From positions 721,428 through 785,427 of the forward strand of contig JBDRQC010000004.1 in the NCBI GenBank assembly GCA_043826505.1: DNA of 64,000 nt, read 5' to 3'. The stretch's first letter is position 1; each line of letters begins with the position of its first letter. Both the position numbers and the translations under genes were made by a program. The notes below the pieces were generated by a model, which did not search any database, had not been told where the DNA came from, and worked only from the letters and a program-made list of their open reading frames with translations. This document shows, piece by piece, positions 5,211 to 28,702 of the stretch. The DNA is from Chrysiogenia bacterium (lineage in GTDB: Bacteria; Acidobacteriota; Aminicenantia; UBA2199).

Positions 5211-5318
5211 TGCAGAGTCCTCCTTTCGATTGTGGCTCATATTTTACACTTTTTCGCAGGCAAAAGCAATTGTTGAATCTTAATCATGCCCGTGCTATCA
5301 TCGGCTTCTGAGGTAGAC

Positions 5319-6770
5319 ATGAAAAAAACCGGGATTTTTCTGATGTTGCTGCTTTGTGCCTGGCTGGCTTTTGGCGAACATGTATCTTTTGCCGATGCCA
5401 GGCAGGTCGCCGTCAATTGGATCAAAACACTCAATTCCGCTTTCAAGGATCAGGTGGCTTTGACCACAGGGGAGATCCTGCGCCGCGATGGGATCGCCGT
5501 GGGTTACGTGTTCCATTTTTCTCCGGCCGGCTACATGCTGGTCGCGGCCGAGGATTACCTGCCGCCTGTAAAACTTTATTCCCTGAAAAACGATTTTGCC
5601 CGTGAAGGCCGTGATTTCGAAGACCAGGTTATCGGGACCCTCAGTTCCCTTATCCGCAAAGTTAACGCCAAAACCCTGGATCCGGAAAAGTATTTTCTGA
5701 AAAGCAATCGGGATAATTTCTCTCTTTTGAAAAAGGATCGGCCGCAGGCCCAGATGCTGACTATGCCAAATCCAGTGCAGGACGCGGTGCCGTTCTTGCG
5801 GACGGCCTGGAACCAGGGAGATCCTTACAATTTGAAATGTCCGCTGATCAATGGCCGCAGGCCTCCCTGCGGCTGCGTGGCCACTGCTTTCGCCCAGATC
5901 TTCTATCATTATCGGTATCCGGCGGCGGGCCAGGGTTCGCACAGTTACATTTGGAATGGAAAAACCCTGACGGCCCATTTCAACCATCCCTACAAATGGG
6001 ACCAGATGCTTCTCAATTACCAGGCGACAACGGCAAATACGGAACAGAAGGAGGCCGTTGCGCAATTGATGTACGATGTGGGTGTGGCTTTTGAAATGGA
6101 CTACGGCTTGAGGGGCAGCGGCGCCTATGCGACCGATGCCTTGACCGCCCTGCCCGGGTTCTTCAAATACTCTGATGACATAAAGGCGATCGATCGCAGC
6201 CAAGTGAGCACGGACGACCAGTGGTTCGACATTGCCCAGCAGCAGGTGGACAAGGGCTTGCCCGTGGCTTTTTCCATTTACAATGATGATTCCGGCCATG
6301 AAGTGGTCATTGACGGCTACCGTATTTCCCAGGGCGCGACCACTTTTCACATAAACATGGGCTGGGGGGGATCTTACGATGGTTACTATTCCCTGAATAA
6401 TATCGACGGCTTCGAAGTAGACGAATGGCAGATTTTTATTTATGATATTTATCCGCCCGGCTACCTGGACGTACAGCCGCCTAAAAATACGACTGGTGAG
6501 GCTCATTTGAACGAAAGCCTGTTTTTTTCCCAGTATGTCTGCCGCGTTTCCTGGGAGGCAAGCCCCAGCGGGGACACCAATCTGAGCAAGTATATCGTTT
6601 TGCAAAAGGACGGCCAGGGCAATGTGGCGGCCTTGAGCGAGGTCTTGCCTGAAGTCAAGGAATATGTTTTCCGCAACGCTGATTACAGCGCCTGCAGTTA
6701 CGCGGTGGTGGCCGTGGATCAGAACGGCCGGCAATCCACGGCCAAGTTTTTTTCACTGGTTTTGCGCTGA
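5319..6770 (+). CDS. Secreted C10-family (streptopain/SpeB-like) cysteine peptidase with N-terminal inhibitor-like prodomain and C-terminal Fn3-like domain
   Basis: Signal peptide MKKTGIFLMLLLCAWLAFG. Catalytic Cys motif PPCGCVATAFAQIFYHYRYP (Cys codon 5874-5876). Catalytic His motif DSGHEVVIDGY. Start moved to the ATG at 5319. Confidence 0.8.
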   Translation: MKKTGIFLMLLLCAWLAFGEHVSFADARQVAVNWIKTLNSAFKDQVALTTGEILRRDGIAVGYVFHFSPAGYMLVAAEDYLPPVKLYSLKNDFAREGRDFEDQVIGTLSSLIRKVNAKTLDPEKYFLKSNRDNFSLLKKDRPQAQMLTMPNPVQDAVPFLRTAWNQGDPYNLKCPLINGRRPPCGCVATAFAQIFYHYRYPAAGQGSHSYIWNGKTLTAHFNHPYKWDQMLLNYQATTANTEQKEAVAQLMYDVGVAFEMDYGLRGSGAYATDALTALPGFFKYSDDIKAIDRSQVSTDDQWFDIAQQQVDKGLPVAFSIYNDDSGHEVVIDGYRISQGATTFHINMGWGGSYDGYYSLNNIDGFEVDEWQIFIYDIYPPGYLDVQPPKNTTGEAHLNESLFFSQYVCRVSWEASPSGDTNLSKYIVLQKDGQGNVAALSEVLPEVKEYVFRNADYSACSYAVVAVDQNGRQSTAKFFSLVLR

Positions 6771-6777: not shown

Positions 6778-7236
6778 TTATTTGAAAAACAGGTAACGGA
6801 TACCCTGCAGAAAGGCCAGGACATAAAACCCGGCCAGCACGTCATCGGTCATAATGCCGATACCGCGGGGCAGCGCTTCGCTTTTGTTGACCGGGAATGG
6901 TTTAATGATGTCGAAAATCCGGAAGAGAAAAAAAGCGGCGATATAAAACCCGGCTTGGCGGGGCAGAAACCAGAGGCTGACCAGTTGGCCGGCCACTTCA
7001 TCGATGACGCATTGGCGCGGATCCTTTTTTTGATAATGCTTTTCACAAAGTGCGGCAGCCGGAATGCCGATGGCGTATACAAATGCCGTGATCAGGGCCA
7101 GGAATACAAAGGGCAGCGTCGCCAGCGGGGTAAAAAATACAATCAGGGCTGTCAGCAGAGATGCCCATGTTCCCGGGGCCACGGGCAGGTAGCCGGTTCC
7201 GAAAAAGGTGGCAATCAAGATCCCGGTTTTCTTCAT
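6778..7236 (-). CDS. pgpA: Phosphatidylglycerophosphatase A
   Basis: MKKTGILIATFFGTGYLPVAPGTWASL is the PgpA N-terminal signature. Its ATG overlaps the rimO stop (ATGA). Confidence 0.85.
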   Translation of the reverse strand: MKKTGILIATFFGTGYLPVAPGTWASLLTALIVFFTPLATLPFVFLALITAFVYAIGIPAAALCEKHYQKKDPRQCVIDEVAGQLVSLWFLPRQAGFYIAAFFLFRIFDIIKPFPVNKSEALPRGIGIMTDDVLAGFYVLAFLQGIRYLFFK

Positions 7237-8561
7237 GATTTTTCTCCATGCAGCATTTCGTTCTGAAAGCCGCTGATCTTGATGGAAAGCATGGGGCTGC
7301 CTTCGCTGAATTTCGCTTGCAACCGGCAATGGCCATCGACTTCAGGCGCTTGGGCCCATATGCGGCCGATGGTGCTGTCGTGGGTCCAGGGGGCCAAAGG
7401 TAAAAAATCCAGGGTTTGTCCGACCAGGCCCTGATTGAACTTTTGCATGTTGCGGTCCGAAACATCCAGGAGTATATTTTTTCGGTCTTCGCTAGTCCGA
7501 GGGTTTTTGCGGTTGGGCAGCCTGAATCCGACCGTGTTCTCTTCGGGTGAAAAGGCGAAAACCCCGATCCGCTCCAATTTGGCTTCGCCGGCAAAATCGA
7601 GAAGTTGCTTGAAGTCGTCTTTGCTTTCGCCCGGGAAGCCGACGATGAAGGTGCTGCGCAGGACGGCATGCGGTAATTTTTTTCTGATCTCCCGCACCAA
7701 GCGCAGGTTTTTTTCGTAGCTGCCGCCGCGATTCATTTTTTTCAATACGCGGGCTGAAACATGCTGAAAGGGGAGATCGAAATAGGGCAGGACCGCCGGT
7801 TGGGCAAAGCCATCCAGAATTTCAGGAGTTACCTCTTCGGGCATCAGGTAAAGTACCCGCAGCCAACGGAAACCTATCAAGGATATTTCCTGCAGCAGGG
7901 CCGGCAGTTGCGAATACTTGCCCCTGTCCCTGCCAAAATAGGTAGAATTCTGGGAAATGAGGTTCAATTCCTCCACGCCCTTTTTTTTCAGTGCTTCTGC
8001 TTCCTTCAATATGGAAGGGATGGTCCTGGAGCGGAAGGGTCCGCGGATCTGCGGGATGGAACAGAAACTGCAGGTCATGTTGCAGCCTTCGGAAATTTTG
8101 ATGAAACTGGAATTGGCGGTGGTGAATAGCGACCGCTGGTTTTTGTCGGAATAAAGAAAAAGTTTCTGATCTGGATAAACCGTGGGCTGACCGCTGGCTA
8201 TGGCATCGGCCAATTCCTCGATATCGTTGACGCCCCAGAGGATGTCAACTGTAGCAAAGGTGGTCTGCAATTCCTTATAGTAGCGCTGGATCAGGCAGCC
8301 GAAAACGGCCAACTTTTTAATCCCGCCTTTTTCTTTTTTTTCAAGTGCAGTCAGTATCTCCTCGATGCTCTCTTCCTTGGCGTCGCGGATGAAACCGCAG
8401 GTGTTGATGACCAGCCATTCGGGATCTTCGTATTCCGAAACGATCCCCATGCCCCTTTGCTGCAGCATCCCGGCCAGCACTTCGCTGTCCACCGTGTTCT
8501 TGAAGCAGCCCAGGCTGATGAACGATACGCTCCGACTTTCAGGTTTCCGGCTGTTTTTCAT
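7233..8561 (-). CDS. rimO: Ribosomal protein S12 methylthiotransferase (radical SAM, MiaB family)
   Basis: 442 aa. N-terminal SLGCFKNTVDSE, radical-SAM CNMTCSFCSIP, C-terminal TRAM-like domain. Confidence 0.85.
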   Translation of the reverse strand: MKNSRKPESRSVSFISLGCFKNTVDSEVLAGMLQQRGMGIVSEYEDPEWLVINTCGFIRDAKEESIEEILTALEKKEKGGIKKLAVFGCLIQRYYKELQTTFATVDILWGVNDIEELADAIASGQPTVYPDQKLFLYSDKNQRSLFTTANSSFIKISEGCNMTCSFCSIPQIRGPFRSRTIPSILKEAEALKKKGVEELNLISQNSTYFGRDRGKYSQLPALLQEISLIGFRWLRVLYLMPEEVTPEILDGFAQPAVLPYFDLPFQHVSARVLKKMNRGGSYEKNLRLVREIRKKLPHAVLRSTFIVGFPGESKDDFKQLLDFAGEAKLERIGVFAFSPEENTVGFRLPNRKNPRTSEDRKNILLDVSDRNMQKFNQGLVGQTLDFLPLAPWTHDSTIGRIWAQAPEVDGHCRLQAKFSEGSPMLSIKISGFQNEMLHGEKS

Positions 8562-8663
8562 GGAGATGGCTTCTATCCTGGTTAAAATTCCATTTTAACA
8601 AAACCAGGCCGTGAAGGCAAATTCAGAGTTGAAAAAAATTGTTAAAAGTTGCATTTATTTTTA

Positions 8664-8692
8664 TTGACGGGGCTATTTTTCTATGATATACA
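8664..8692 (+). promoter_or_regulatory. Putative sigma70-type promoter of the five-gene operon
   Basis: TTGACG (8664-8669), 17-nt spacer, TATACA (8687-8692), about 34 nt before the ATG at 8726. Found by pattern match only. Confidence 0.35.
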
Positions 8693-8725
8693 AACTGTGC
8701 ATTACTGTCTGAAAAGGAGGAATAT

Positions 8726-9871
8726 ATGAGTGTTTCTGGTCAAAAATCAACCGGGAAAAAGTATAGGATCGCCTGGCTGCCGGGCGACGGCATCGGCAAG
8801 GAAGTGATGGAAGCGGCCCGGATCGTTCTCGACAAGCTGCAGTTCAACGCCGAGTACATTCACGGTGACATCGGCTGGGAGTTCTGGTGCAAAGAGGGCG
8901 AATCCTTCCCGCAGCGCACCATCGACCTGTTGAAGAGCGTCGACGCCGCCATGTTCGGCGCCATCACCTCCAAGCCGGTCAAGGCGGCCGAGGTCGAGCT
9001 GGTGCCCGAACTGAAGGGCACGGGCCTGGTCTACCGCTCGCCGATCGTGCGCATGCGCCAACTGTTCGATCTCTACACCTGCCTGCGCCCCTGCAAATCC
9101 TACCCGGGCAATCCCATCAATTACAAGGAAGGGATCGACCTGGTGGTCTTCCGCGAAAACACCGAGGACCTCTACGCGGGCGTGGAATTCAATCCCGTGC
9201 CGCAGGAGGTCAGAGACGTACTGCTGAAGAACGCCAAGGGTTTCGCCGCCTTCAAGGACGTGCCCCTGGACCAGTATGCCATCACCTGCAAGATCAACAC
9301 CCGCAAGGGTTCGGAGCGCATCATTCGCGCCGCCTTCGAATATGCCAAGAAGCACGGCTATCCCAAGGTCACCGTGATCCACAAGGCCAATGTCGTGCGC
9401 GCCACCGAGGGGCTGTTCCTCGAGATCGGCAAGGAAGTAGCCAAGGACTTCCCGGGCATCCAAATGGACGATGCCAACATCGACGCCATCTGCATGTGGC
9501 TGCTGAAGAACCCCAAGAACTACTCGGTGCTGGTGGCCACCAATATGTTCGGGGACATCGTTTCAGACCTCTGCGCCCAGATGGTAGGCGGTTTGGGCTT
9601 CGGCTGTTCGGGCAACATCGGCGAAAAACTGGCCGTTTTCGAGCCCACGCACGGCTCGGCGCCCAAGTACGCCGGACAGTACAAGACCAACCCCATGGCC
9701 ACCATTCTGGCGGCCAAGATGATGCTGGACTGGCTGGGTGAGAAAGAGATGGGCGCCAGGATCGAAAAAGCCGTGGGCGAGATAATCGCCGAGGGCCAGG
9801 TGCGAACTTATGATATGGGCGGGACAAGCAAGACCCTGGAAATGGCCGAAGCCATCGCCGCGAAATTGTAG
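8726..9871 (+). CDS. Beta-decarboxylating dehydrogenase of the isocitrate/isopropylmalate/homoisocitrate dehydrogenase family (substrate unresolved)
   Basis: 381 aa. LPGDGIGKEV, FRENTEDLYAGVEF (the IDH/archaeal-type RENTE form, not bacterial LeuB RELTGG), NMFGDIVSDL and GSAPKYAG. AAGGAGG RBS. Confidence 0.8.
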   Translation: MSVSGQKSTGKKYRIAWLPGDGIGKEVMEAARIVLDKLQFNAEYIHGDIGWEFWCKEGESFPQRTIDLLKSVDAAMFGAITSKPVKAAEVELVPELKGTGLVYRSPIVRMRQLFDLYTCLRPCKSYPGNPINYKEGIDLVVFRENTEDLYAGVEFNPVPQEVRDVLLKNAKGFAAFKDVPLDQYAITCKINTRKGSERIIRAAFEYAKKHGYPKVTVIHKANVVRATEGLFLEIGKEVAKDFPGIQMDDANIDAICMWLLKNPKNYSVLVATNMFGDIVSDLCAQMVGGLGFGCSGNIGEKLAVFEPTHGSAPKYAGQYKTNPMATILAAKMMLDWLGEKEMGARIEKAVGEIIAEGQVRTYDMGGTSKTLEMAEAIAAKL

Positions 9872-9926
9872 TCCGGACCGGAGCTTCGGATAGCAGCCGT
9901 GAAAATACGCCTGGGGAGATCGCCAA

Positions 9927-10844
9927 ATGGGTGAAATAAAAATTCATGAAGTGGGATTGCGGGATGGCTTGCAGATCGAGAAGCAAACCGTTCCCTTTGA
10001 GAAAAAAGTGGCTTGGGTGGAGGGTTTGCTCGCTTCCGGCATCGACATGATCCAACTGGGATCATTCGTCAATCCCGAAAAGGTTCCGCAAATGGCCGAT
10101 ACGGACAAACTGTTCGCTCATTTCACCCGGACAGACAGCAAGCCGGCCGGGACGGTTTTTTCCGGCCTGGTCTTGAACGAAAGAGGCTTGGAGCGCGGCC
10201 TGGCCTGCGGCGTGGACATGTTCTGCATGGGGGTTTCGGCCAGCGATACTCACAGCCGTAAAAATACGGGCAAAGGCACCGAGGAAGCCGTGGAGCAGAT
10301 CATTGCCATGGCCCAGGCGGCCATGAAAGCGCAGAAAAGGATACAGGTCTCCATCCAGTCGGCGTTCGGCTGTGGCTTTGAAGGCGCCATTCCCCAAGAG
10401 CGTATATTTTCCATCGTGGACAGGTACCTGGCCGCCGGCATCCGCAATATCAGCCTGGCCGACACGGCCGGGCACGCCTATCCGCAGCAGGTCGAATTTC
10501 TTTATGCTGAAATATTGCAACGCGACGGTCAGCTCGAACTGGCCTGCCATTTCCACAACACCTACGGCCTGGGCCTGGCCAACTGCTATGCCGCCCTGAA
10601 ATCAGGTGTGAAATATTTTGAAGCGGCACTGGGCGGCCTGGGCGGCTGCCCCTTCACCAAAGTGGCGGCCGGGAATGTCTGCACCGAGGATCTAGTGCAT
10701 TCGCTGCAGCGCCAGGACCTGGTCCTGGACATCAACCTGGACAAGCTTATGGGAACCGCCCGCGACATCGGCAGTTTTTTCAACCGCGAGCTGCCCGGCT
10801 CAATCCTGAAAGCGGGTTCGCTGAAAAATTTTAAAAAGGCGTAG
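9927..10844 (+). CDS. HMG-CoA-lyase-family (DRE-TIM metallolyase) hydroxyacyl-CoA lyase
   Basis: 305 aa. IHEVGLRDGLQ, SFVNPEKVPQMAD, HFHNTYGLGLAN and GLGGCPF motifs of the HMGL family. No LeuA-type C-terminal domain. Confidence 0.8.
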   Translation: MGEIKIHEVGLRDGLQIEKQTVPFEKKVAWVEGLLASGIDMIQLGSFVNPEKVPQMADTDKLFAHFTRTDSKPAGTVFSGLVLNERGLERGLACGVDMFCMGVSASDTHSRKNTGKGTEEAVEQIIAMAQAAMKAQKRIQVSIQSAFGCGFEGAIPQERIFSIVDRYLAAGIRNISLADTAGHAYPQQVEFLYAEILQRDGQLELACHFHNTYGLGLANCYAALKSGVKYFEAALGGLGGCPFTKVAAGNVCTEDLVHSLQRQDLVLDINLDKLMGTARDIGSFFNRELPGSILKAGSLKNFKKA

Positions 10845-10859
10845 ACAAGGAGGGTAAAA

Positions 10860-12053
10860 ATGAAATTACTGGAAAAAGTCAGGGTCCTTGACCTGACTAA
10901 TGTCCTTTCCGGCCCTTTTGCCACCATGCACCTGGCGCTGTTGGGTGCCGAGGTGATCAAGGTGGAAAACCCCCAAGGCGGTGACCTGGCCCGCAAACTG
11001 GGCAGCGTCTCCAGCCTGAACAAGCAGCTGATGGGGACCAGCTTCCTGGCCCAGAATGTCAATAAAAAGTCGCTGACCCTGAACCTGAAAGTTGACGAAG
11101 CCAAGGAAATTTTCCTAAAACTGGTCAAGACGGCCGATGTGCTGGTGGAAAATTTCCGGCCCGGGGTCATGGAACGATTGGGTTTTTCCTACCAGAAACT
11201 GACCGAGATCAATCCCAAGCTGATCTACTGCGCCATTTCCGGATTCGGCCAGACCGGCCCCGATGCCTTTAAACCCGCTTATGACCAGATCATCCAGGGC
11301 TTGAGCGGGGTCATGTCCATCAACGGCGATGAACGGTTGAATCCGCTACGCTGCGGTTTTCCGGTCTGCGACACGGTCGGCGGCCTGAATGCCGCCTTTG
11401 CCGTCATGGCAGCCCTGTATCACCGCGAAGTCAGCGGCCAGGGGCAGTTCATCGACGTGTCCCTGCTTGACTCCATCATGCCCTTGATGGGTTGGGTGGC
11501 GGCCAACCTGCTCATCGGCGGTCAGCAGCCGGTGCTGCTGGGCAATGACAATTTCACCGCCGCCCCTTCCGGGACCTTCGTCACCAAGGACGGCTACATC
11601 AATATTGCCGCCAACCAGCAGAAGCAATGGGAAGACCTGGCCGACGCCCTTGGCCTGCCGGAACTGAAGACCGACCCCCGCTTCCAGGAACGGGATGCGC
11701 GCAAAGCCAACCGCAAACCGCTTACCCCGTTGTTGGAAGCAAAGTTGAAAGAGAACACCACGGTTTATTGGGTCGACCTGCTCAATGACAAGGGCATCCC
11801 TTCCGGCGATATTGTCAGCCTGGAAGCGGCCCTGACTTCGGAACAGGCCCGGCACCGGCACGTTATCGAAGAAGTCAAGGAAGAGGGCATCGGTTCCATC
11901 AAGGTTTTCAACATGACCGCCAAGTTTTCCAAGACACCGGCTAAGATCGACGCGCCGCCGCCGCGGCTTTCGGCCCATAGCGAAGATATCCTGAAAGGAC
12001 TGGGTTATGGTCAAAAAGATATAGAAGCCTTAAAAGAAAAAGGAGCGATTTAA
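10860..12053 (+). CDS. Family III (CaiB/BaiF/Frc-type) CoA-transferase
   Basis: 397 aa. VRVLDLTNVLSGPFATMHLALLGAEVIKVE, ENFRPGVMERLG and GFPVCDTVGG, which are typical of family III. Confidence 0.85.
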   Translation: MKLLEKVRVLDLTNVLSGPFATMHLALLGAEVIKVENPQGGDLARKLGSVSSLNKQLMGTSFLAQNVNKKSLTLNLKVDEAKEIFLKLVKTADVLVENFRPGVMERLGFSYQKLTEINPKLIYCAISGFGQTGPDAFKPAYDQIIQGLSGVMSINGDERLNPLRCGFPVCDTVGGLNAAFAVMAALYHREVSGQGQFIDVSLLDSIMPLMGWVAANLLIGGQQPVLLGNDNFTAAPSGTFVTKDGYINIAANQQKQWEDLADALGLPELKTDPRFQERDARKANRKPLTPLLEAKLKENTTVYWVDLLNDKGIPSGDIVSLEAALTSEQARHRHVIEEVKEEGIGSIKVFNMTAKFSKTPAKIDAPPPRLSAHSEDILKGLGYGQKDIEALKEKGAI

Positions 12054-12082
12054 GTTATTAACAAAAAAAAGGAGGTTAAAAC

Positions 12083-13375
12083 ATGGGAATGACAATGGTT
12101 GAAAAGATACTGGCCAAGGCCACCAACCAGGCCGCGGTCAAAGCGGGAGATGTCCTGGAACCCAGGGTCGACATGGCCATGTCGCATGAAAACGGGGCCC
12201 TGGTAATCAACCAGTTCTCTGAAATTTACAAAGATACGGGACTGGATGCCAAGGTTTGGGATCCTGACAAGATCGCCATTATTTTCGATCACCGCGTGCC
12301 GGCCGAAAGTTCAAAAACAGCCGGCAACCAGAAGAAAATCAGGGATTTCGTGGCCAAGCAGGGGATCGCAAAATTTCACGACATTCGCGGCGACAGCGGC
12401 GGCATCTGCCACCAGATCCTCCCCGAATCCGGCTATATCCGACCTGGCAAGGTCGTGGTCGGCACCGACAGCCATACTACCAGCCACGGCGCCCTGGGAG
12501 CCTTTTCATTCGGCATCGGCGCCACTGAAATGGCCGCGGTCTGGGCCCTGGGCCGGGTGCTGAATGTCGAAGTCCCGGGCACCATCAAGGTGATTTGCGA
12601 AGGCAAGTTCAAGCGCCATGTCGCGCCCAAAGACCTGATCCTGCATCTTATCGGCAAACTGAGCGCCGAAGGCGCCAATTTCAAGGTCATCGAATTCCAC
12701 GGTCAGGTCATTGAAAAGATGTCGACTTCGGGCCGCCTGGTGATCTGCAACATGACCGTTGAGGCCGGCGCCACTTCCGGCATTGTACCTCCCGACCGGG
12801 AAACGCAACGTTATTTGCAGGAAGAAGCCGGAGTTAAAGATCAACTTGACATCATCGCTCCGGACCCTGACGCGGTGTACGACCAGGTGATCACTATAAA
12901 TGTTTCCAAGCTGGAACCGCAGATCGCCTGCCCCCATACCGTGGACAACGTCAAGCCCATCAAGGAAGTCGCTGGCATCAAGATCAATCAGATCGTCATC
13001 GGTTCCTGCACCAACGGCCGCCTCGACGATCTGGCCATTGCCGCCAAGATACTGAAGGGCAAGAAAGTGGCCCGCCAGACGCGCATGCTCATCTTTCCGG
13101 CTTCGACAAGGATTTATCTCCAGGCCCTGAAAAAGGGCTATATCACCACCTTCATGGAAGCCGGAGCCGTGATGATGAATTCGGGTTGCGGCCCCTGTTT
13201 GGGTATTCACCAGGGCGCCCTGGCCGACGGTGACGTGGCCCTGGCCACTACCAACCGCAATTTCAAGGGGCGCATGGGCAACCCCAATGCCGAAGTGTAC
13301 CTGTGTTCGCCTGCCGTGGCTGCCGCCAGCGCCATAACCGGCGTCATCACTGATCCCAGAAAAGGAGGAAAATAA
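12083..13375 (+). CDS. Aconitase-superfamily hydro-lyase, large subunit (archaeal-type LeuC/HacA-like)
   Basis: 430 aa. VGTDSHTTSHGALGAF, GSCTNGR and CGPCLG Fe-S cluster ligand motifs. The roughly 420-aa short form resembles LeuC/HacA. Confidence 0.85.
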   Translation: MGMTMVEKILAKATNQAAVKAGDVLEPRVDMAMSHENGALVINQFSEIYKDTGLDAKVWDPDKIAIIFDHRVPAESSKTAGNQKKIRDFVAKQGIAKFHDIRGDSGGICHQILPESGYIRPGKVVVGTDSHTTSHGALGAFSFGIGATEMAAVWALGRVLNVEVPGTIKVICEGKFKRHVAPKDLILHLIGKLSAEGANFKVIEFHGQVIEKMSTSGRLVICNMTVEAGATSGIVPPDRETQRYLQEEAGVKDQLDIIAPDPDAVYDQVITINVSKLEPQIACPHTVDNVKPIKEVAGIKINQIVIGSCTNGRLDDLAIAAKILKGKKVARQTRMLIFPASTRIYLQALKKGYITTFMEAGAVMMNSGCGPCLGIHQGALADGDVALATTNRNFKGRMGNPNAEVYLCSPAVAAASAITGVITDPRKGGK

Positions 13376-13376
13376 G

Positions 13377-13883
13377 ATGGCTAAAGTTGTCTTTAAAGTG
13401 GGAGACGATGTTTCCACCGATATCATTTATCCGGGAAGATTCATGGCCACGGTCCTGCCAACCGAGACCCCGCAATTCGCCTTTATCGATTACCCCGAGT
13501 TCAACGCCAAGGTGAAGAACAAGGAATTCCCGCCGCAGAGCATCATTGTGGGCGGAAAGAACTTCGGTTGCGGTTCCTCGCGCGAGCAGGCCGCGTCGTG
13601 TCTCAAGGGCCCCGATTTCGTGGTGATCGCCCCGAATTTCTCGCGCATTTTCATGCAGAACGCCATCAACCTGGGTTTGAAAATGGTTATCTGTCCGACC
13701 ATTGAGGCCAATGAGGGTGACGAGCTGGAGATCACGGCCGACCAGGTGATCAACAAAACCTCAGGCAAGAGCTTCCCCCTGGTACCGCTGCCCAAGGCCA
13801 GGCAGACCATCATCGACGCCGGGGGGCTGATCCCTTTTACCCGCAAGCTCTTGTTGGACACAAAGGCCAGGCCCGGAATTTGA
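13377..13883 (+). CDS. Aconitase-superfamily hydro-lyase, small subunit (LeuD/HacB-like)
   Basis: 168 aa. GDDVSTDIIYPGRF and GKNFGCGSSREQA motifs. It starts 1 nt after the large-subunit stop. Confidence 0.85.
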   Translation: MAKVVFKVGDDVSTDIIYPGRFMATVLPTETPQFAFIDYPEFNAKVKNKEFPPQSIIVGGKNFGCGSSREQAASCLKGPDFVVIAPNFSRIFMQNAINLGLKMVICPTIEANEGDELEITADQVINKTSGKSFPLVPLPKARQTIIDAGGLIPFTRKLLLDTKARPGI

Positions 13884-13901
13884 TAATTCATTTTTCCTTT
13901 C

Positions 13902-14825
13902 TTGCCCGTGCAGAAGTTCCCGCAGGAGAACAAAGAGGCGCCCATGGGTAGCAATTTCAGAGCAGCCCTGATTACGCTCTCCCGGGCGTTGCCTGCGGTC
14001 CTTTTCAGGGCCGGGATATTCATTGCCGGCGGTTTTTTGGTCATCATATTTTTCGCTATGCTGCTTATCGCCTTGCGCCTTGCCGGTGGCGTCAGCCAAT
14101 CAGTAGTCATTGCTGTTCTCGTACTGGCCGTGCTGGGCGGCTGGGGGTGCAGCCGGGTTTTGCAGCGGTTTTTCCTTTTCCGGCACCGGGCCGCCCTGCT
14201 CTTGCTTTTTTCCGATCGTCCCACCATGGCTCCCGGCCTCTCCGTTGCCATCCAAGAGGTCGGACGCTTTTTCCCAGATCATTCCAGCTGGGCGCTCATG
14301 AACCGCGACCTGCGCCGGGCCTTGTCTGCTTTTTATAATGAGGACAGTGATTTTCCCTTACACCCCGATTCGACTTCGGGCGGGTCCTTTTCGGGAGCCT
14401 TTGAGCGCTTGACGAACATGACACTTGCCCAGGCTGTTCTGGCATTGGCATTTTCCCGCGCCAGCACCGAGCCGAGTCGATCGGTTCGGGAAGGACTGGC
14501 CCTGTATTTCCGGCATGGCCTGGGAAGCCAGCGCCTGGCGCGCCGCTGGCATTGGTTTTCGATTGGCGGACTGGCTTTCCTGTTCCTTTGCCTGGCCATC
14601 CCCAACTGGTTCTTTTTCACAAGCACCGGAACCCCGGTCGAGATCGGGATCGTCCTGGCCGCCGCCATCGCCTGGCTGCTGCACCAAGCCTTTGTCCAAC
14701 CCTTTGTCCTGGCCGGCGTGAGCGGCGCCCTGTTGGCCGAGACCAGGGGGCACACGCCCGACCCGGAATCTTGCGAAAAATTGACCACCTTTTTTCCGGA
14801 TGCAGCCTTGGCTGCCGAACGTTGA
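13902..14825 (+). CDS. Hypothetical multi-pass membrane protein
   Basis: 307-aa ORF with several hydrophobic helices (e.g. IFIAGGFLVIIFFAMLLIAL, FSIGGLAFLFLCLAIPNWFFF). No recognisable family. GC-rich region with many shadow ORFs. Start uncertain (alternative ATG at 13944). Confidence 0.45.
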   Translation: MPVQKFPQENKEAPMGSNFRAALITLSRALPAVLFRAGIFIAGGFLVIIFFAMLLIALRLAGGVSQSVVIAVLVLAVLGGWGCSRVLQRFFLFRHRAALLLLFSDRPTMAPGLSVAIQEVGRFFPDHSSWALMNRDLRRALSAFYNEDSDFPLHPDSTSGGSFSGAFERLTNMTLAQAVLALAFSRASTEPSRSVREGLALYFRHGLGSQRLARRWHWFSIGGLAFLFLCLAIPNWFFFTSTGTPVEIGIVLAAAIAWLLHQAFVQPFVLAGVSGALLAETRGHTPDPESCEKLTTFFPDAALAAER

Positions 14826-14846
14826 AGGGACGGCCTTTTTCCTCAG

Positions 14847-17800
14847 CTAATCGCTTACCGCGACGGTTTTCATCTCGTTTCTGCCGAAATACTGCGGGTG
14901 GTACATGCCCTGGGCTATTGCGGGCATCCAGGTGAAGCGGCCGCTGTACATGGCTTTGATATAATACACTATGCGCAGGTTGCCCAGCATGGAATAGGTA
15001 TAGAAGACCAGGCGGTCGGCGGCGTTCTCCCGGCGCATCCATGGTGTCCGGTATTTGACCTGGTTCGCCGTGTTGAATTCCTTCAATGAACGGGTGCTGC
15101 CGATGTCCTGGCGCAGGAGCTCGAAACCGGCGGCCAGGGGCTCGTCAATGACGCCATAGGGGACCTCCTTGTCGGTCCTGAGGAGCAATTCCACCTGGTA
15201 GACCTGGCCGCGCTTGAATTGATCCACGGCCTGTCCCGTTTCGTTGTAGACCAGGCGCTGAATATCGATGCCGCGGCTTTTCTTTTTTGCCCTGGCCAAT
15301 TGATAGGTCAATTCGCTGGTGACATATACCGACTGGTCGGCCTTGACACTGACTTCGACCATTTCTTTTCGACCAGAGAGTTTTTTGCTGACACTGAGCA
15401 TATCCTGGTAGTCGGTGAATTCCTTGGCGGTTTTTTCGCCCAGAAAAACGATCTCCGCCTTGCGGGCCGTGGTTTTTTCTACTTTTGCCAGGTACTGGTC
15501 CATGGCGCACATGACCCAGAAGTTGGTCTGGGTCGTGTTCCAGCAGTAGGGCTCGGCCTCGAGCAGCCAGCGGATGATGCGTTCGGCCAGAACATGGCCG
15601 GCTTCCACTTCCAGGACGGCCTGAAGGAGCAGGGCAGTGGCGAAGCGCGAAGAGTAGAAAGGGAAGTCGCGGTGGTAGGCGAATTCGCCGGCGTCAAAGT
15701 AAGCGAAGTCAGCCTCGACCTGCAGACTGCTGTTGAACTCGGCCAGCATGGCTGCCAGGAGGTCGGCTGCTTTTCCCTGATTGTTCAGGGCCCGGTACAG
15801 GAAAACCCGGGCCGGCAGGGGCAGCGTGTCCCTTTCAGCAGCCAGCTTTTTCAGCTTTTTGCTATCGGCACTCCTGCTTAGGCTCAGAACAAATTGATAA
15901 AAGCTTTCGCAGGTCTTGTCCAGGCTGGCCCGCCGCAGGTATGCCGACAGCTTCTGCACCAGTTGCGGGTCCACCATGTAATCACGCTCCCGGGCCAGGT
16001 GCAGGCTCCAAAGGACATAGGCGGTCAGGTAGTCCGAGGTGTATTGGCCGCCGCGGTAGTATGAAAGGGCTCCTTGCGAATTCATGAATTCGGGGATGAT
16101 CTTCAGGTAGCCGTTCACGGCCTCTAGTACCTGCCCCTGGTCCAGTCCCAGCTCCAGGCGCTCTGCCAACTGCGGGCTGAATGCCAGGAAGGGCATCACC
16201 TTGGAAGCCCGCTGCTCCATGCATTCATAAGGATAGAAAACAAGTTTTTTGGCGATGTTGACGGCCGGCCGCAGCAGGGAGGGGGCGGCCTTGATAGTGA
16301 TGACCTGGTTTTCGGCTTCGGCCTGGGGCTCAATCATTTTTTTCAGGAACTTGCCGCTGGCGAAATCGATCAGGGTCTCCATGACCAGGCGGTCGGTCAC
16401 AGGCAATTTTTTCTGGAGCCCGTCCTTGTCCGCCCGGGAGACGGCATAAAAATCGATCTTGGCCTCGCCGAGGCGGTCGGCCAGAAAGGGGAATTGGAAC
16501 AGGCTGTTGCCGCGCGCATCCAGGGCGCGGGCAATCTGGGGGTTGCCGTTGATGCTTATCCCCTCCGGCTTGGCCAGTAGGGTGACCGGGAGTTTCTGCG
16601 TGGTGCGGTTGCTGAGCTGGACCCCGGCAAGGAACTCGTCGCCCCGGCGGGCAAACTCGGGCATGGCCTCGGAGATCAGCAGATCCTTGCTGACCATGAT
16701 CTTCTTTGCCGCTGAGCCAAAACTGTCCTCGCCGTAGGCCACGGCCATGATGCGAAAGGTGGAGAGCTGGTCCGAGCTTTCAAATTCAATTTCGGCATTT
16801 CCCCTGGCATCGGTTTCTATGTTTTTGAAGAACAGGACCTCGCGGAAGTCGCTGCGCACGCGGATGCCGGCAATATCGACCGGGACCCCGCCGAGAACTC
16901 CTCCGATCACACCGCCCTCGGCATCTTTCTCCCCTTTCTGGCGGGACATACTTTTCATCTCAGCGGCCATGGGAGCGGGCATGGCCCTGCCCGCGACCCC
17001 GCCCTCCACGCCGAACTCATCAGCGGAGTTCCAATATTTGTCCGCCGATACCGGGATCAGCGCCAGGTCGCAGGGGCGGTGATAATTGCCGTTAAAATAG
17101 ATATCGGACTTCAGGAAAGGATGAAAACCCTTGGCCTCGGCCTTGATCGCGTAACGGCCGCCGGGCAGGCCGGGAAAGCTGTAATATCCTTGCGCGCTGG
17201 TCGTGGTCGTTTTCAGCTTGTTGTGCTTTTCGTCTTCCAGGGTGACAGACGCCCCGGCCAGCGGCGTGGCGTCGGGCCTGAAAATGCAGCCGAAAATAGC
17301 GGGCTCCTTCAGGTCGATGTCCATCATGGGGCGTTCGAAGGTCCAGTGCATGTAGTTTTTTGAATAATAGGTCTGGATCGCATTTCGTCTCGACAAAGAA
17401 GAGTGATAAAAAAGCCTGATCGGGTCAGGGGTCCGGTAGCCCTGCAGGGAAAGGTTGCCCTCGTCCACGGCATAGACAAAAAGTTTGGCCTTCACTCCTG
17501 TTTTTTCTGCATTGCGCACGCGGATCTTCAGGGTGGTTTTGCCGGCCGGCTTGATCTCGGCCGGGCATTCCAGGCCGATATCCAAGGTCTTGCGGCTGTC
17601 TTCGACCATGAATTCTCTGGAGGCCTCCTCGGAGACATTGTTCTCGTACATGGCGACGACGCTGACGCGAAAGCCCGGAAAAAACTCTTTTTTAACAGGG
17701 ATCTCCAGTGGCGTCATCTTTTGCAGCTCGATGACACGGGAATCGAGCACTTTCCCCCTTTCTACGGTCACCAGCGCCTGACCCTCCCGGGTGGAATGAA

Positions 17801-20585
17801 TGAAGCACTTCAGCATCTCACCGTTGCGCAGAGTGGGTTGGTTGGATTCGATCCTCAGCCGGTCGGTTCCCTCGGAGTAGCCGCCGCCCCAGGAAAAGAA
17901 ACTGGCCGAGGTCGAAACCACGCGGCCGTTCACATCGGGGGTATCGCAGCGCAGAATATAATGGCCCGCTTCAGGAACGCGGAAAGCGCGGGTTTTGGTC
18001 TTTTCAATGAAAACATCGTCGGGACCGGATACTTTTTTTTGCAGGCGCCGGGATTTTTCATAATATTGCCTGTAGAGCGTGACGCGGACCTCACCGGAAA
18101 CGGGCTTTCCCTGGAAATCGACCAGGGCCAGCTTGGCGTTGACTTGTTCTTTCAGGTTCTGGTAATAGCCGATATGAATGCCGGTCAAAAGTTTTCCCGG
18201 AAAAAACAGCGATTGGGCACGGGCGGTGAATTCCTTGCCTTCAGCCGATTTCCCCGTTGCAGAAAAGCCGAGTTTGGCCAGGAAATTGGTTTTTTTTAAT
18301 TTGCTCATGGGGATGGCAAGCGTATGTTTGCCTCTCGCATCAAACTTGTCCCCCCCTTTCTGCGGCGGGTCGCTTTTTGCCAGGTCGCGGTCGAGGCCGA
18401 AACTGAACCGCTCCAGCCCATTGGCCGTGAACACTTTGGAATCGTTCGGCGCCAGTCCAAGCATATAATCGAAAGCATCACCAGCCATCGGATTGCCTGC
18501 CAGGTAGGAGCCGCTGACCAGCGGGCGGAACGTGTCTTCCGGCAGATAACGCTCCGCCACGCCGGAGATCTTCAATTCGAAGGTGTTAGGCTGGTAGTAA
18601 TCGATGGTCACGCCGTGCTGGGCTTGCCAGGTTTGCATGCCCGCGACCTTGACCAGGATCTGGTAATGCCCTTTCTTGCCGGCCGGGTCCGAATTGTAAT
18701 CATAATGAAATCCCCCCAGGGGATCGAGCTGCAGCGTATCAGTTTTGATCCGTTGCCAGTCCGGCCCCCTGATCTCCAGGGAAACCGATGTCGCTTTCGG
18801 CGAGGAGACCTTTCCAGAGGCATATTCCTTGACGATGCCGCCGATATGGACCGTATCGCCGGGCTTGTAGAAATCCCGCTCGCTGAACAAGGTGATCCTG
18901 ACCTCGCGGTCGGATGGGGGGCGGCGGTCTATTTTGGCCAGCGCCATGTCGCCGGCGTCGGTATTTTTAGCCGTAATCAGGTCGGTTTTCTGGATCTCCC
19001 TGGAGCTGAGCAGCACGCCTTCAGCAGAGGATTCCCCGAGCGGCTGTGCTTCCTGGCCATATCCTTTGAGAAAGAACGGTATCTTGCCCAACCCTTTGCC
19101 GCTGCGGTTGTCGTACAGCCAATACAGGGTCTGTCCCTGGCCGGCCTTGACCACCATATCCATGTTGCGGCGGTGAAAGACCTGCAATTCGTCGGGACGC
19201 GCCATGGGCAGGCGCATCAGGGCGATGTCGCGGCAGGAGTTGTAAGGCTCATAGCGCTGGACAAGGAATGCAAAGAAGCCCAGGGGCGAGCCCAGTTCAT
19301 TGCCCTTCAGTGCGGGGTTGTTAGATTTTTCCGGCAGGTCGGTCAGCTTTTGCAGGATCTCTTTCTCGACGAATTCAGCCTTGAAATCCCTGCGCTGCAG
19401 CATGCCGAAATCCCGGTTCGTTAACTGGGTATAGAATTCGGGCTTGAGCTTGAGCAGGCGGACACTGGCTTGCTTCATGCTTTTGGCGGTCATGGCCAGT
19501 TTTTTATTCTGCATGGAAAAATCGAGGCGCGGCGAGCGGCTGGAGCAGACCGCGGCTTCGATTTCCAGGCCCTCGGGCAGCCGCTCATTGTAGATGTTGG
19601 TCAACTTCCGATCGATGCGGATGCTCAGGCGGTCGTCCGAAGCCAGCTCGTCGTCAACGCGGATGAACAAGGTATGGTTCTCGTAATGACGGGACTGGAG
19701 GCGGAACGTCAATGGGATTTTATCCTGGCCAACTGATTTAAATATCTTGATGAGGGCGGGATCCGCTTCAGCCAGCCTATTGGCAAAAGGCAGTTGGCAA
19801 TAAGGCGAGTCGGGATAGAGGACCAGGGGCCGTGTTCCTGTGTAGTTGAAATCCGGCACGGTGTCAAAGCTGAAAGTGAATTCCTTGCCGGTCCCCGTGC
19901 TCCCTTCGCTGCCGCAAAAACCTCTTTTAATGATAAATTGATAAAGCATCCCCCGTTCCAGGTCCCTAGCGTAGCTTATCTTGAGCTCCTCTGCTGTTTG
20001 TTGGGAAACCTGGATCGTGACCTGCTTGCCGCTCTTGGCCTCTTTCAGGATGAAGAACTCCTTGGCGCTGCCTGCTGCCACTTCCTGATTGAAGCGCAGG
20101 GTGAAGGCGTCTTTCACCCAAACCTGAAAGTTCAATTTTTCTCCGGCATTTAAATCGGAAAAATAACTCCGGGCCGCTGGCTTGATCTCAACAGGAAATG
20201 CTTGCGGTGTGCTCCATTGCCAGCGCAAGGTCCGCGGCAGGAACTTTCCCGAAAGAGACCGCGTCCCGGCCGGAATTACGGCGGTATAAGTGGTGGAATA
20301 ACGAAAACGGGTCTCGGGCTTGAAGGCCAGGGTGCGGTTGCCGCGCCAGGTGAACTCACCCTTGATTGACGGCGTGATCTGCACGATGGCGCTGCCTGCT
20401 CTTTTTCCCCCCAAAGGCAGCATGTCGTCGGAAAACGTGACGACCAGTTCCTTGTCAGCAAGGTTTTGCAGGTTTCCCGACAGGTTGTATATAACTTTTA
20501 ATTCATCCTTATTCGGGTTCCCGGCCAGTGCCGTGGCCAAAAACACGGTCATGGTGATCGTCAATATTGCAAGTATGGTTTTCAT
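14847..20585 (-). CDS. Large secreted alpha-2-macroglobulin-family protease-trapping protein with a thioester
   Basis: 1912 aa. Signal peptide, repeated MG-type beta-sandwich regions, A2M segment RVRSDFREVLFFKNIETDARGNAEIEF, thioester motif YPYECMEQ and a C-terminal receptor-binding-like domain. AAAGGAGG RBS. Confidence 0.85.
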   Translation of the reverse strand: MKTILAILTITMTVFLATALAGNPNKDELKVIYNLSGNLQNLADKELVVTFSDDMLPLGGKRAGSAIVQITPSIKGEFTWRGNRTLAFKPETRFRYSTTYTAVIPAGTRSLSGKFLPRTLRWQWSTPQAFPVEIKPAARSYFSDLNAGEKLNFQVWVKDAFTLRFNQEVAAGSAKEFFILKEAKSGKQVTIQVSQQTAEELKISYARDLERGMLYQFIIKRGFCGSEGSTGTGKEFTFSFDTVPDFNYTGTRPLVLYPDSPYCQLPFANRLAEADPALIKIFKSVGQDKIPLTFRLQSRHYENHTLFIRVDDELASDDRLSIRIDRKLTNIYNERLPEGLEIEAAVCSSRSPRLDFSMQNKKLAMTAKSMKQASVRLLKLKPEFYTQLTNRDFGMLQRRDFKAEFVEKEILQKLTDLPEKSNNPALKGNELGSPLGFFAFLVQRYEPYNSCRDIALMRLPMARPDELQVFHRRNMDMVVKAGQGQTLYWLYDNRSGKGLGKIPFFLKGYGQEAQPLGESSAEGVLLSSREIQKTDLITAKNTDAGDMALAKIDRRPPSDREVRITLFSERDFYKPGDTVHIGGIVKEYASGKVSSPKATSVSLEIRGPDWQRIKTDTLQLDPLGGFHYDYNSDPAGKKGHYQILVKVAGMQTWQAQHGVTIDYYQPNTFELKISGVAERYLPEDTFRPLVSGSYLAGNPMAGDAFDYMLGLAPNDSKVFTANGLERFSFGLDRDLAKSDPPQKGGDKFDARGKHTLAIPMSKLKKTNFLAKLGFSATGKSAEGKEFTARAQSLFFPGKLLTGIHIGYYQNLKEQVNAKLALVDFQGKPVSGEVRVTLYRQYYEKSRRLQKKVSGPDDVFIEKTKTRAFRVPEAGHYILRCDTPDVNGRVVSTSASFFSWGGGYSEGTDRLRIESNQPTLRNGEMLKCFIHSTREGQALVTVERGKVLDSRVIELQKMTPLEIPVKKEFFPGFRVSVVAMYENNVSEEASREFMVEDSRKTLDIGLECPAEIKPAGKTTLKIRVRNAEKTGVKAKLFVYAVDEGNLSLQGYRTPDPIRLFYHSSLSRRNAIQTYYSKNYMHWTFERPMMDIDLKEPAIFGCIFRPDATPLAGASVTLEDEKHNKLKTTTTSAQGYYSFPGLPGGRYAIKAEAKGFHPFLKSDIYFNGNYHRPCDLALIPVSADKYWNSADEFGVEGGVAGRAMPAPMAAEMKSMSRQKGEKDAEGGVIGGVLGGVPVDIAGIRVRSDFREVLFFKNIETDARGNAEIEFESSDQLSTFRIMAVAYGEDSFGSAAKKIMVSKDLLISEAMPEFARRGDEFLAGVQLSNRTTQKLPVTLLAKPEGISINGNPQIARALDARGNSLFQFPFLADRLGEAKIDFYAVSRADKDGLQKKLPVTDRLVMETLIDFASGKFLKKMIEPQAEAENQVITIKAAPSLLRPAVNIAKKLVFYPYECMEQRASKVMPFLAFSPQLAERLELGLDQGQVLEAVNGYLKIIPEFMNSQGALSYYRGGQYTSDYLTAYVLWSLHLARERDYMVDPQLVQKLSAYLRRASLDKTCESFYQFVLSLSRSADSKKLKKLAAERDTLPLPARVFLYRALNNQGKAADLLAAMLAEFNSSLQVEADFAYFDAGEFAYHRDFPFYSSRFATALLLQAVLEVEAGHVLAERIIRWLLEAEPYCWNTTQTNFWVMCAMDQYLAKVEKTTARKAEIVFLGEKTAKEFTDYQDMLSVSKKLSGRKEMVEVSVKADQSVYVTSELTYQLARAKKKSRGIDIQRLVYNETGQAVDQFKRGQVYQVELLLRTDKEVPYGVIDEPLAAGFELLRQDIGSTRSLKEFNTANQVKYRTPWMRRENAADRLVFYTYSMLGNLRIVYYIKAMYSGRFTWMPAIAQGMYHPQYFGRNEMKTVAVSD
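16212..16223 (-). other. Thioester motif C-M-E-Q of the A2M protein
   Basis: The reverse complement of ctgctccatgca is TGC ATG GAG CAG. It is in frame with the ORF (16212-14847 is divisible by 3). Confidence 0.8.
16861..17300 (-). other. Atypical bait-position insert in the A2M ORF: CarboxypepD_reg-like beta-sandwich (~17050-17300) plus a Gly/Ala/Met low-complexity tract (~16861-17049)
   Basis: GASVTLEDEKHNKLKTTTTSAQGYYSFPGLPGGRYAIKAEAKGF is followed by EGGVAGRAMPAPMAAEMKSMSRQKGEKDAEGGVIGGVLGGVPV. Both lie immediately upstream of the conserved A2M segment. Confidence 0.55.
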
Positions 20586-24091: not shown

Positions 24092-24239
24092 TGTGCACCC
24101 CCGGAATTTTTCATTATATCTATAATAACTGCCGAAAGCAAAGTTCCACGGCAGCGAGATCTCAATTGGGGGACCGTGTCCCCTTTGGATGGATTTCACA
24201 AACTCCCGTTTTTGTGCTACAATAAGACCTCTCAGGTTC

Positions 24240-28691: not shown

Positions 28692-28702
28692 ACCCCTTAC
28701 GC

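Follow-up and report, generated by a model that had tools for sequence, protein, structure and literature searches.

A conserved five-gene cluster of uncultured anaerobes that may shorten 2-oxoacids by running a chain-elongation module in reverse

Described 2-oxoacid elongation modules, namely the front half of the alpha-aminoadipate pathway (homocitrate synthase, HacAB/Lys4, homoisocitrate dehydrogenase) and the LeuA/CimA-LeuCD-LeuB series, draw on the same isomerase and dehydrogenase families as the locus reported here, a cluster of five genes in a 64,000-nucleotide stretch (the window) of contig JBDRQC010000004.1 (GenBank assembly GCA_043826505.1) from a Chrysiogenia bacterium assigned by GTDB to the Aminicenantia of the Acidobacteriota. 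Two further systems are pertinent. In Chloroflexus aurantiacus, studied by Friedmann et al. in 2006 and 2007, Sct is reportedly a succinyl-CoA:(R)-citramalate CoA-transferase and Ccl an (R)-citramalyl-CoA lyase. In Pseudomonas putida, the subject of work by Thompson et al. in 2019 and 2020, lysine is said to be converted to 2-aminoadipate (by AmaA/AmaB) and 2-oxoadipate, from which HglS forms D-2-hydroxyglutarate and, in turn, 2-oxoglutarate arises. Our cluster encodes a dehydrogenase (DH), a lyase (LY), a CoA-transferase (CT) and the large and small subunits of an aconitase-type isomerase (LSU and SSU), and we propose that it constitutes a thioester-conserving 2-oxoacid elongation module in which LY and CT replace the irreversible condensing synthase. 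That it runs mainly in reverse, as a chain-shortening sequence for 2-oxoacids in amino-acid fermentation, we hold to be about an even proposition (probability roughly 0.5); that uncultured anaerobes of many phyla do so on 2-oxoadipate (via homocitryl-CoA) and/or 2-oxobutyrate we would place slightly below even.

The five genes all lie on the plus strand: DH (8726-9871; 381 amino acids; full-length match to Pfam Iso_dh, PF00180, E 4.6e-88), LY (9927-10844; 305 amino acids; HMGL-like, PF00682), CT (10860-12053; 397 amino acids; CoA_transf_3, PF02515, E 1e-121), LSU (12083-13375; 430 amino acids; Aconitase, PF00330) and SSU (13377-13883; 168 amino acids; Aconitase_C, PF00694). They are separated by 55, 15, 29 and 1 nt, and these coordinates confirm the five co-directional genes and the gaps given in an initial annotation made from the sequence alone. 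Ribosome-binding sites of the AGGAGG type precede four of the five starts, the LY start having a weaker GGGGAG. The shared promoter-like site of that annotation can be read by eye upstream of DH, as a candidate sigma-70-like promoter (TTGACG-17 nt-TATACA; 8664-8692, plus strand), but it is weak and absent from the results of a consensus scan. No Rfam elements, riboswitches or T-boxes were detected at E<=1 in window positions 7000-16000, and a riboswitch and T-box search in seven relatives' loci returned only tRNAs. Paralogues of the five proteins (leuA/leuB/leuCD-like) were found by tblastn neither elsewhere in the 64-kb window nor in 84 loci.

The grouping of these five genes is far beyond chance. 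A LY-based scan with one genome per GTDB species yielded 80 loci, in which gene presence was scored by tblastn with the window proteins; the taxon labels of the metagenome-assembled genomes (MAGs) are approximate and not fully reliable. CT lies next to LY in all 80 species loci, both isomerase subunits are present in 57 of the 62 loci with room downstream and DH in 46 of the 64 with room upstream, while among the 54 loci with enough flank 42 contain all five genes, 41 of them in the order DH-LY-CT-LSU-SSU. By label these loci cover at least six phyla (Aminicenantes/Acidobacteriota, Chloroflexota (Anaerolineales), Ignavibacteria/Bacteroidota, Caldithrix, Armatimonadetes, Zixibacteria, Omnitrophota and others). 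The relatives' proteins are 64-83% identical to those of the window, and beyond the five genes there is no broadly conserved neighbour. Three LY homologues in four long Aminicenantes contigs have the identical five-gene order, with RimO or a nitroreductase in the upstream flank.

A chance juxtaposition of an HMG-CoA (3-hydroxy-3-methylglutaryl-CoA) lyase/transferase pair with a leuCD/leuB-like set would be in keeping with the six loci with enough flank that contain LY-CT alone (L028, L029, L033, L048, L075, L077) and with the Zixibacteria loci, in which DH is not adjacent to the rest of the cluster. Such an explanation is nevertheless scarcely credible, because the gene order is kept across phyla while the flanks differ, and the genes overlap or lie a few nucleotides apart in several lineages. 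The concern raised in the initial annotation, that the LY/CT pair would part from the isomerase and DH in relatives, is thus not borne out by their neighbourhoods. That the cluster has escaped notice may be due to the metagenomic origin of all 80 species loci. Around the LY-CT-only, Zixibacteria and L066 loci lie genes of secretion, VWA, beta-lactamase, methylase or kinase type, which offer no clue to function. In L066 a 7-kb insertion (12226-18831) splits the cluster between CT and LSU and carries genes for a C5 DNA methylase, GHKL ATPase/kinase-like proteins and a radical SAM/SPASM protein. The Chloroflexota clusters have long LY-CT gaps of 160-295 nt (L030 10909-11205, L039 6759-7035, L055 10903-11065).

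LY is predicted to be an HMG-CoA-lyase-type (DRE-TIM) lyase of 3-hydroxy-3-substituted acyl-CoAs. It scores above the cut-off of the HMG-CoA lyase subfamily model NF004283 (275.8 against 246 bits; residues 3-296 aligned to profile positions 6-295 of 300), and its closest solved structures are bacterial HMG-CoA lyases. Against the synthase models it reaches at most 74 bits, with cut-offs above 400 (517 for the best model), and this protein of only 305 amino acids fails membership of the LeuA, CimA, NifV and homocitrate synthase families; the view that the operon holds no LeuA/CimA/NifV/citrate-synthase-type gene is upheld. The catalytic and metal-binding motifs, whose roles are known from human HMGCL, are intact (R12-D13, HFH, GLGGCPF, AAGN). 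No liu/mcc-type neighbours, as expected of a leucine-catabolic or ketogenic HMG-CoA lyase, were present at any locus examined, the constant neighbours being CT, LSU, SSU and DH. We considered 3-hydroxy-3-methylglutarate itself as the acid and rejected it on reaction chemistry: it has no alpha-carboxyl for aconitase-type enzymes and no beta-carboxyl for decarboxylation.

CT is a family III (Frc/CaiB/SUGCT-type) CoA-transferase, with a full-length domain (residues 4-373 aligned to positions 1-365 of 366 of the PF02515 profile). Among NCBIfam models the succinate-glutarate, formyl-CoA, oxalate and mesaconate transferases fit best, with succinate--glutarate CoA-transferase in front (289 bits; cut-off 750), and CT passes no equivalog (succinate-glutarate, formyl-CoA, oxalate, mesaconate or carnitine). 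The closest structures are a protein named formyl-CoA transferase and human SUGCT.

LSU and SSU, judged by their families and motifs, probably form a heterodimeric LeuCD/HacAB-type Fe-S hydro-lyase. LSU exceeds the cut-offs of NF001614 and TIGR01343 (hacA_fam), and the isomerase also passes TIGR02086; it stays below the equivalogs HacA_Meth (488.8 against 550) and LEU2 (464.8 against 610). The closest structures to LSU are Methanocaldococcus jannaschii (Mj) LeuC (410.6 bits) and HacA (390.5 bits), and the three cysteine ligands of a [4Fe-4S] cluster are present (C309, C369, C372). SSU passes TIGR02087 (LEUD_arch; 113.8 against 108.95 bits), falls below the leud (107 against 246) and HacB (105 against 230) equivalogs, and has the GSSRE motif (GCGSSREQA). 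Its recognition loop, YPGRFMATVL, part of the DIIYPGRFMAT motif correctly quoted in the initial annotation, is nearly invariant in 45 orthologues. Aligned, PGRFMAT of SSU stands against PARYLVY in MjLeuD, PGPYLRT in MjHacB and PGRYNLT in Pyrococcus horikoshii, so that FMAT matches neither known loop type (YLVY or YLRT). The P. horikoshii small subunit, without the arginine of MjHacB, can replace a homoaconitase small subunit (PMC7308503).

DH, a beta-decarboxylating dehydrogenase of the isocitrate/isopropylmalate/homoisocitrate family, lies below every NCBIfam equivalog cut-off. Its best NCBIfam match is the AksF2 homoisocitrate dehydrogenase (343 bits against 540; AksF, 308 against 500) and its best PDB matches are homoisocitrate dehydrogenases; the LeuB models all fail (TIGR00169, 203 against 353; PRK03437, 272 against 393; LEU3_arch, 339 against 410), and DH is far under the cut-offs of all isocitrate dehydrogenase (IDH) models. 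The substrate loop YRSPIVRMR, before the first substrate arginine, is essentially invariant in 40 orthologues, and its S-P-I-V core is identical in the homoisocitrate dehydrogenase of Schizosaccharomyces pombe (3ty3; YSSPIVALR). In Escherichia coli and Bacillus subtilis IDH the loop reads R-S-L-N-V; of the S-x-N-V motif of isocitrate dehydrogenases DH keeps the serine, but the gamma-carboxylate-binding asparagine is isoleucine in all orthologues, Ser113 and Asn115 (E. coli IDH numbering) being the residues that bind the gamma-carboxylate. Relatives of DH with S-x-N-V motifs form a separate group. The isopropylmalate dehydrogenase loop of Sulfurisphaera tokodaii (DVVVKLR) is unlike that of DH, and so is that of Thermus LeuB (ETGLLSLR). 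Yeast LYS12 served as a probe; the conclusions from the loop comparisons rest on the PDB sequences it matched.

The cofactor motif of DH, HGSAPKYAG, essentially invariant in the 40 orthologues, is like that of B. subtilis NADP-IDH, whereas the NAD-dependent Thermus homoisocitrate dehydrogenase and an NAD-IDH have HGSAPDIAG instead. DH also has an E. coli-type IDH insertion in its middle and, as noted in the initial annotation, a FRENTEDLYAG motif. Its nearest non-orthologous relatives, none of them characterized to our knowledge, are 38-47% identical (P0129, P0133, P0135, P0138, P0148, P0156), and some relatives are Iso_dh-MoCF_biosynth fusions of 715-764 amino acids, one being fused to an RraA-like aldolase domain. 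Taken together, the loop clues of DH and SSU disfavour isocitrate and lean to homoisocitrate, with small alkyl-malates still compatible. An alkyl-malate substrate was at first suggested by valine at the position of Thermus Arg85 in DH and alanine at that of MjHacB Arg26 in SSU; this idea was withdrawn in view of the S. pombe S-P-I-V core and the P. horikoshii complementation.

From the gene content, families, motifs, conservation and linkage that we observe, we infer direction, substrates and CoA donor as follows. The NADP-type DH would reductively carboxylate R-CH2-CO-COOH to a 3-R-malate, which the Fe-S isomerase LSU/SSU would convert to a 2-R-malate. CT would then activate the acetate-derived carboxyl, with succinyl-CoA or acetyl-CoA as donor, and LY would split the 2-R-malyl-CoA into acetyl-CoA and R-CO-COOH. 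The net reaction would be 2-oxoacid(n+1) + CO2 + NADPH -> 2-oxoacid(n) + acetate-equivalent, at the cost of one reducing equivalent and with the thioester retained. The foremost candidate, a tentative one, is the series from 2-oxoadipate through homoisocitrate, homocitrate and homocitryl-CoA to 2-oxoglutarate and acetyl-CoA, which would provide an oxygen-independent end of lysine/2-aminoadipate catabolism. A close second, itself no better than tentative, runs from 2-oxobutyrate, which would come from methionine or threonine, through 3-methylmalate, (R)-citramalate and (R)-citramalyl-CoA to pyruvate and acetyl-CoA. It is possible that one broad-specificity enzyme set serves both. The initial annotation had suggested synthase-independent 2-oxoacid elongation or cleavage; that enzyme logic holds, but the particular routes and the direction it gave find only partial support. 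It left out the homocitrate/2-oxoadipate series, yet this is the one best backed by the DH loop and by linkage to lysine genes.

That linkage is seen in the Anaerolineae. In locus L061 an ornithine/lysine-cyclodeaminase-family gene, a sarcosine/pipecolate-oxidase-type FAD oxidase and a piperideine-6-carboxylate dehydrogenase (AmaB; NF050084, 763 against 730 bits) precede DH-LY-CT-LSU-SSU on the same strand, and in L026 the AmaB gene lies 58 nt from DH, also on the same strand. In L056 the gene types of L061, accompanied by a D-amino-acid-dehydrogenase-like gene, are found on the same strand but downstream of the cluster, and L054 and L080 have AmaB in divergent orientation. Saccharopine-dehydrogenase-family genes flank the cluster in six further loci; L052 has an equivalog-level lysine 2,3-aminomutase nearby. 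For 2-oxoadipate formed from 2-aminoadipate, only the route through homoisocitrate, homocitrate and homocitryl-CoA would use all five proteins in their canonical reaction types.

A different linkage occurs in MAGs labelled Bacteroidota or Ignavibacteriae: there DH-LY-CT-LSU-SSU closes a compact series of genes on one strand, overlapping or almost touching, whose first member encodes a Cys_Met_Meta_PP enzyme (methionine gamma-lyase or cystathionine gamma-lyase in the source annotations). In some lineages this pyridoxal-phosphate (PLP) enzyme is followed by a family I (AcetylCoA_hydro) CoA-transferase; then a 2-oxoacid:ferredoxin oxidoreductase is encoded, its subunits in the order delta, alpha, beta, gamma, before two small open reading frames (ORFs) and DH. 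The arrangement of PLP enzyme and oxidoreductase is found in nine diverged lineages with 74-81% identity, including all three homologues sampled, and in two further loci the oxidoreductase is convergent and downstream of the cluster. Gamma-lyases of the Cys_Met_Meta_PP family release 2-oxobutyrate, which suggests the C4 analogue of the route, ending in pyruvate and acetyl-CoA. Such a route would agree with Chloroflexus Ccl/Sct, the only lyase/transferase analogue known to be characterized. Alternatively, the oxidoreductase, which JGI names 2-oxoglutarate/2-oxoacid oxidoreductase and NCBI names VorB, could consume 2-oxoglutarate and supply succinyl-CoA to CT. The two small ORFs (L166 14219-14722; L167 16723-17238; L168 15444-15945) encode a protein of 82 amino acids without a family and a rubrerythrin-like protein of 70-83 amino acids. 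In L166 an OsmC gene overlaps the end of SSU. A nitroreductase/TM1586_NiRdase-type gene is located just upstream of the cluster in some Aminicenantes loci (L001 8069-8695, L002 8076-8702) and upstream of the PLP enzyme in L166 (8937-10004); its presence in both contexts may be coincidence or mark a shared accessory gene.

The oxidoreductase also bears on a citrate series, in which the genes would encode a citryl-CoA lyase, a citrate CoA-transferase, a small aconitase and an NADP-isocitrate dehydrogenase, serving as an energy-conserving substitute for citrate synthase or as ATP-independent citrate cleavage in a reductive tricarboxylic acid (TCA) cycle segment. Lying directly upstream in the Bacteroidota, the 2-oxoacid:ferredoxin oxidoreductase would complete a contiguous segment linking succinyl-CoA, 2-oxoglutarate, isocitrate and citrate to acetyl-CoA and oxaloacetate. 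The broad distribution fits a central-metabolic role, and DH has the NADP-type motif, the IDH insertion and, before its loop, an Arg-Ser as in E. coli IDH. This series, proposed in the initial annotation, is however the least supported of the substrate series and improbable: it conflicts with S-P-I-V in place of S-x-N-V in the DH loop and with the low scores of DH against IDH models, the hydro-lyase is of the LeuCD/HacAB type rather than an aconitase, the NCBI name of the oxidoreductase is VorB and not KorA, and the lysine and methionine-lyase linkages would be left unexplained.

Another option, in keeping with the name VorB, is that the cluster shortens some other 2-oxoacid, for example leucine-derived 2-oxoisocaproate to 2-oxoisovalerate, which a VOR-type oxidoreductase would then oxidize. 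Downstream of the cluster, several Anaerolineales loci have LIV-type ABC transporters, and positions -4 and -3 of the DH loop are hydrophobic, as in isopropylmalate dehydrogenases. The same loop has Arg and Ser as in tricarboxylate enzymes, however, LIV-type binding proteins are not specific for a single ligand, and no branched-chain aminotransferase is linked to the cluster; we regard this option as quite doubtful.

As to direction, in all characterized cases known to us where an HMGL-type lyase is paired with a family III transferase, the two activate and cleave an acid (Chloroflexus Sct/Ccl; SUGCT/HMGCL). NADPH is the usual reductant for carboxylation, and the NADP-type motif of DH suits a reductive step. 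In about 165 loci there are no ilv, leu or lysW-type neighbours, in line with the absence of leu/ilv neighbours already noted for the window, whose annotated genes are housekeeping, peptidase and transport genes with no leu/ilv or TCA genes among them. The recurrent neighbours are instead catabolic enzymes, amino-acid/peptide transporters and EamA-type carriers, which points to the cleavage, that is, the chain-shortening direction. The C10 peptidase, POT-type transporter and urocanase genes of the window host are in keeping with this direction. By an estimate from textbook free energies, the reverse sequence, if no thioester is lost, would run close to equilibrium and would be slightly exergonic with acids in the millimolar range, a high NADPH/NADP ratio and CO2 at 10-30 mM.

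Forward operation for biosynthesis has to be weighed against these observations. Acetyl-CoA and pyruvate would then yield 2-oxobutyrate for isoleucine through citramalyl-CoA, citramalate and 3-methylmalate with the thioester saved; variants would be the 2-isopropylmalate route to leucine and the conversion of 2-oxoglutarate to 2-oxoadipate. The similarity of the isomerase subunits to the M. jannaschii isopropylmalate/citramalate isomerase would suit such a route, the high conservation and the stand-alone operon would be in keeping with a core biosynthetic function, and an HMGL-type (R)-citramalyl-CoA lyase acting with a family III transferase is known from Chloroflexus. The whole forward sequence is estimated to be thermodynamically feasible with abundant acetate, but a condensation without thioester hydrolysis would be unfavourable at low substrate concentrations. 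Moreover, the biosynthetic LeuB and homoisocitrate dehydrogenases compared are of the NAD type, the DH loop is unlike that of bacterial or archaeal LeuB, and the neighbours that recur are amino-acid catabolic; the citramalate-to-2-oxobutyrate route, the first candidate of the initial annotation, is without contextual support. Cultured Ignavibacterium has no genes for lysine biosynthesis or for the rest of branched-chain amino acid biosynthesis (PMC3362086), and a biosynthetic role in this phylum is accordingly less likely. We consider the forward direction unlikely.

Several points weigh against the chain-shortening reading as well. Reductive carboxylation is thermodynamically tight, the whole sequence being estimated at about -10 kJ/mol at assumed concentrations. 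Direction and substrate, as read from genes, rest on context in two lineages, the neighbours in most loci, the Aminicenantes window among them, give no clue, and the lysine and methionine-lyase contexts point to different 2-oxoacids. AmaB, OCD, DAO and KamA were not found beside the cluster in 80 metagenome loci, and we give the lysine linkage less weight for that reason. In the Bacteroidota, the gamma-lyase-type gene, CoA-transferase and oxidoreductase may belong to a methionine-to-propionate unit of their own, next to the cluster but distinct from it. At the protein level, LSU and SSU are overall nearest to the M. jannaschii isopropylmalate/citramalate isomerase, slightly ahead of HacA/HacB; the SSU loop has alanine where MjHacB has Arg26; DH has valine at the position of Arg85 of the Thermus homoisocitrate dehydrogenase (A-I-R85-Y); and the hydrophobic loop positions -4 and -3 are shared with isopropylmalate dehydrogenases.

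A literature search on the cluster or its proposed chemistry returned no description, in keeping with the earlier impression that no operon of this combination had been described, and the term 'homocitryl-CoA' does not occur in the literature searched. There is a realistic chance that the cluster represents a new catabolic pathway. If chain shortening is its function, it would be a redox-consuming, thioester-conserving and oxygen-independent alternative to the oxidative decarboxylation of 2-oxoacids, and a new amino-acid fermentation route in abundant uncultured sediment and digester bacteria (Aminicenantes, Anaerolineae, Ignavibacteria, Zixibacteria, Calditrichota) that would explain how 2-oxoadipate or 2-oxobutyrate is disposed of without oxygen or the release of extra reducing equivalents. 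An elongation module made reversible by exchanging the synthase for a lyase and a CoA-transferase would also be of interest for synthetic CO2-incorporating pathways. The proposed function, if right, would moreover correct the routine labels 'HMG-CoA lyase, 3-isopropylmalate dehydratase, isocitrate dehydrogenase', which would be misleading for MAG reconstructions. Were the forward direction true instead, a route to 2-oxobutyrate or 2-oxoadipate that needs no synthase and spares ATP would likewise be new.

Apart from the five genes, the window contains a sixth co-directional ORF, missed in the otherwise correct gene list of the initial annotation, immediately following SSU (ORF6; 13944-14825, plus strand). 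It encodes a membrane protein with hydrophobic segments at about residues 9-74 and 202-254 and without a Pfam or NCBIfam match. An ORF occupies this position in the L001-L004 contigs, and among the 22 Aminicenantes-type loci (L001-L022), 18 gave tblastn matches of 40-83% identity, while in the remaining four the contig ends before this position; at loci of phyla other than Aminicenantes such matches are absent. ORF6 is at most a tentative member of the operon. On the minus strand, 14847-20585 encodes an alpha2-macroglobulin-like protein of 1912 amino acids that adjoins the cluster in most Aminicenantes loci and whose orthologues have MG2, A2M_BRD, A2M and bMG10 domains.

Host genes in the window include a C10 peptidase, a POT-type peptide transporter and a urocanase. 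The peptidase (5286-6770, plus strand; 494 amino acids; streptopain family), with a weakly I69-inhibitor-like N-terminal region, fits a proteolytic lifestyle, and the urocanase (51269-53296, plus strand; 675 amino acids, with domains from residue 87) indicates histidine catabolism. Two plus-strand ORFs at 207-1034 and 1047-2534 (275 and 495 amino acids) match, in length and relative position, the DHODB_Fe-S_bind and Fer4_20/Pyr_redox_2 genes of L003; this NfnAB/GltD-like pair recurs upstream of the cluster in several Aminicenantes loci and could supply NADPH. A stretch at about 24000-36000 has a lower GC content (0.43-0.47, against 0.52-0.58 elsewhere) and may be an acquired island; it encodes a 1036-amino-acid Reg_prop/Y_Y_Y/GGDEF protein, a PilZ protein, glycosyltransferases, a SelB-wing protein and M16 peptidases.

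Compared with the described elongation modules, the cluster is set apart by LY and CT in place of the synthase, by the NADP-type motif, by proteins that pass no equivalog and by its catabolic context. The adjacent pair of a family III transferase (about 44 kDa) and an HMGL-type lyase (about 34 kDa), predicted to activate and cleave a 2-substituted malate, is like Chloroflexus Sct/Ccl, which is not known to be linked to an isomerase and a dehydrogenase. The closest solved relatives of CT and LY, human SUGCT and bacterial or human HMG-CoA lyases, suggest a likeness to the salvage of 3-hydroxy-3-methylglutarate and to leucine catabolism, but the cluster has no methylcrotonyl-CoA carboxylase or methylglutaconyl-CoA hydratase neighbours. 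Citrate lyase (CitDEF) and the citryl-CoA synthetase/lyase of Hydrogenobacter are similar in logic only, in that a thioester is formed first and then cleaved to an acetyl-thioester and a 2-oxoacid; the proteins are non-homologous (CitE/CitF or ACL-type against a DRE-TIM lyase and a family III transferase), and the cluster would use CoA rather than acyl carrier protein and no ATP step. In the Anaerolineae, beside an AmaB equivalog and pipecolate-pathway-type genes, the cluster sits in the place held in P. putida by HglS and D-2-hydroxyglutarate dehydrogenase; HglS, a decarboxylating oxygenase, depends on O2, and the cluster would instead form 2-oxoglutarate anaerobically, through a carboxylation and a cleavage.

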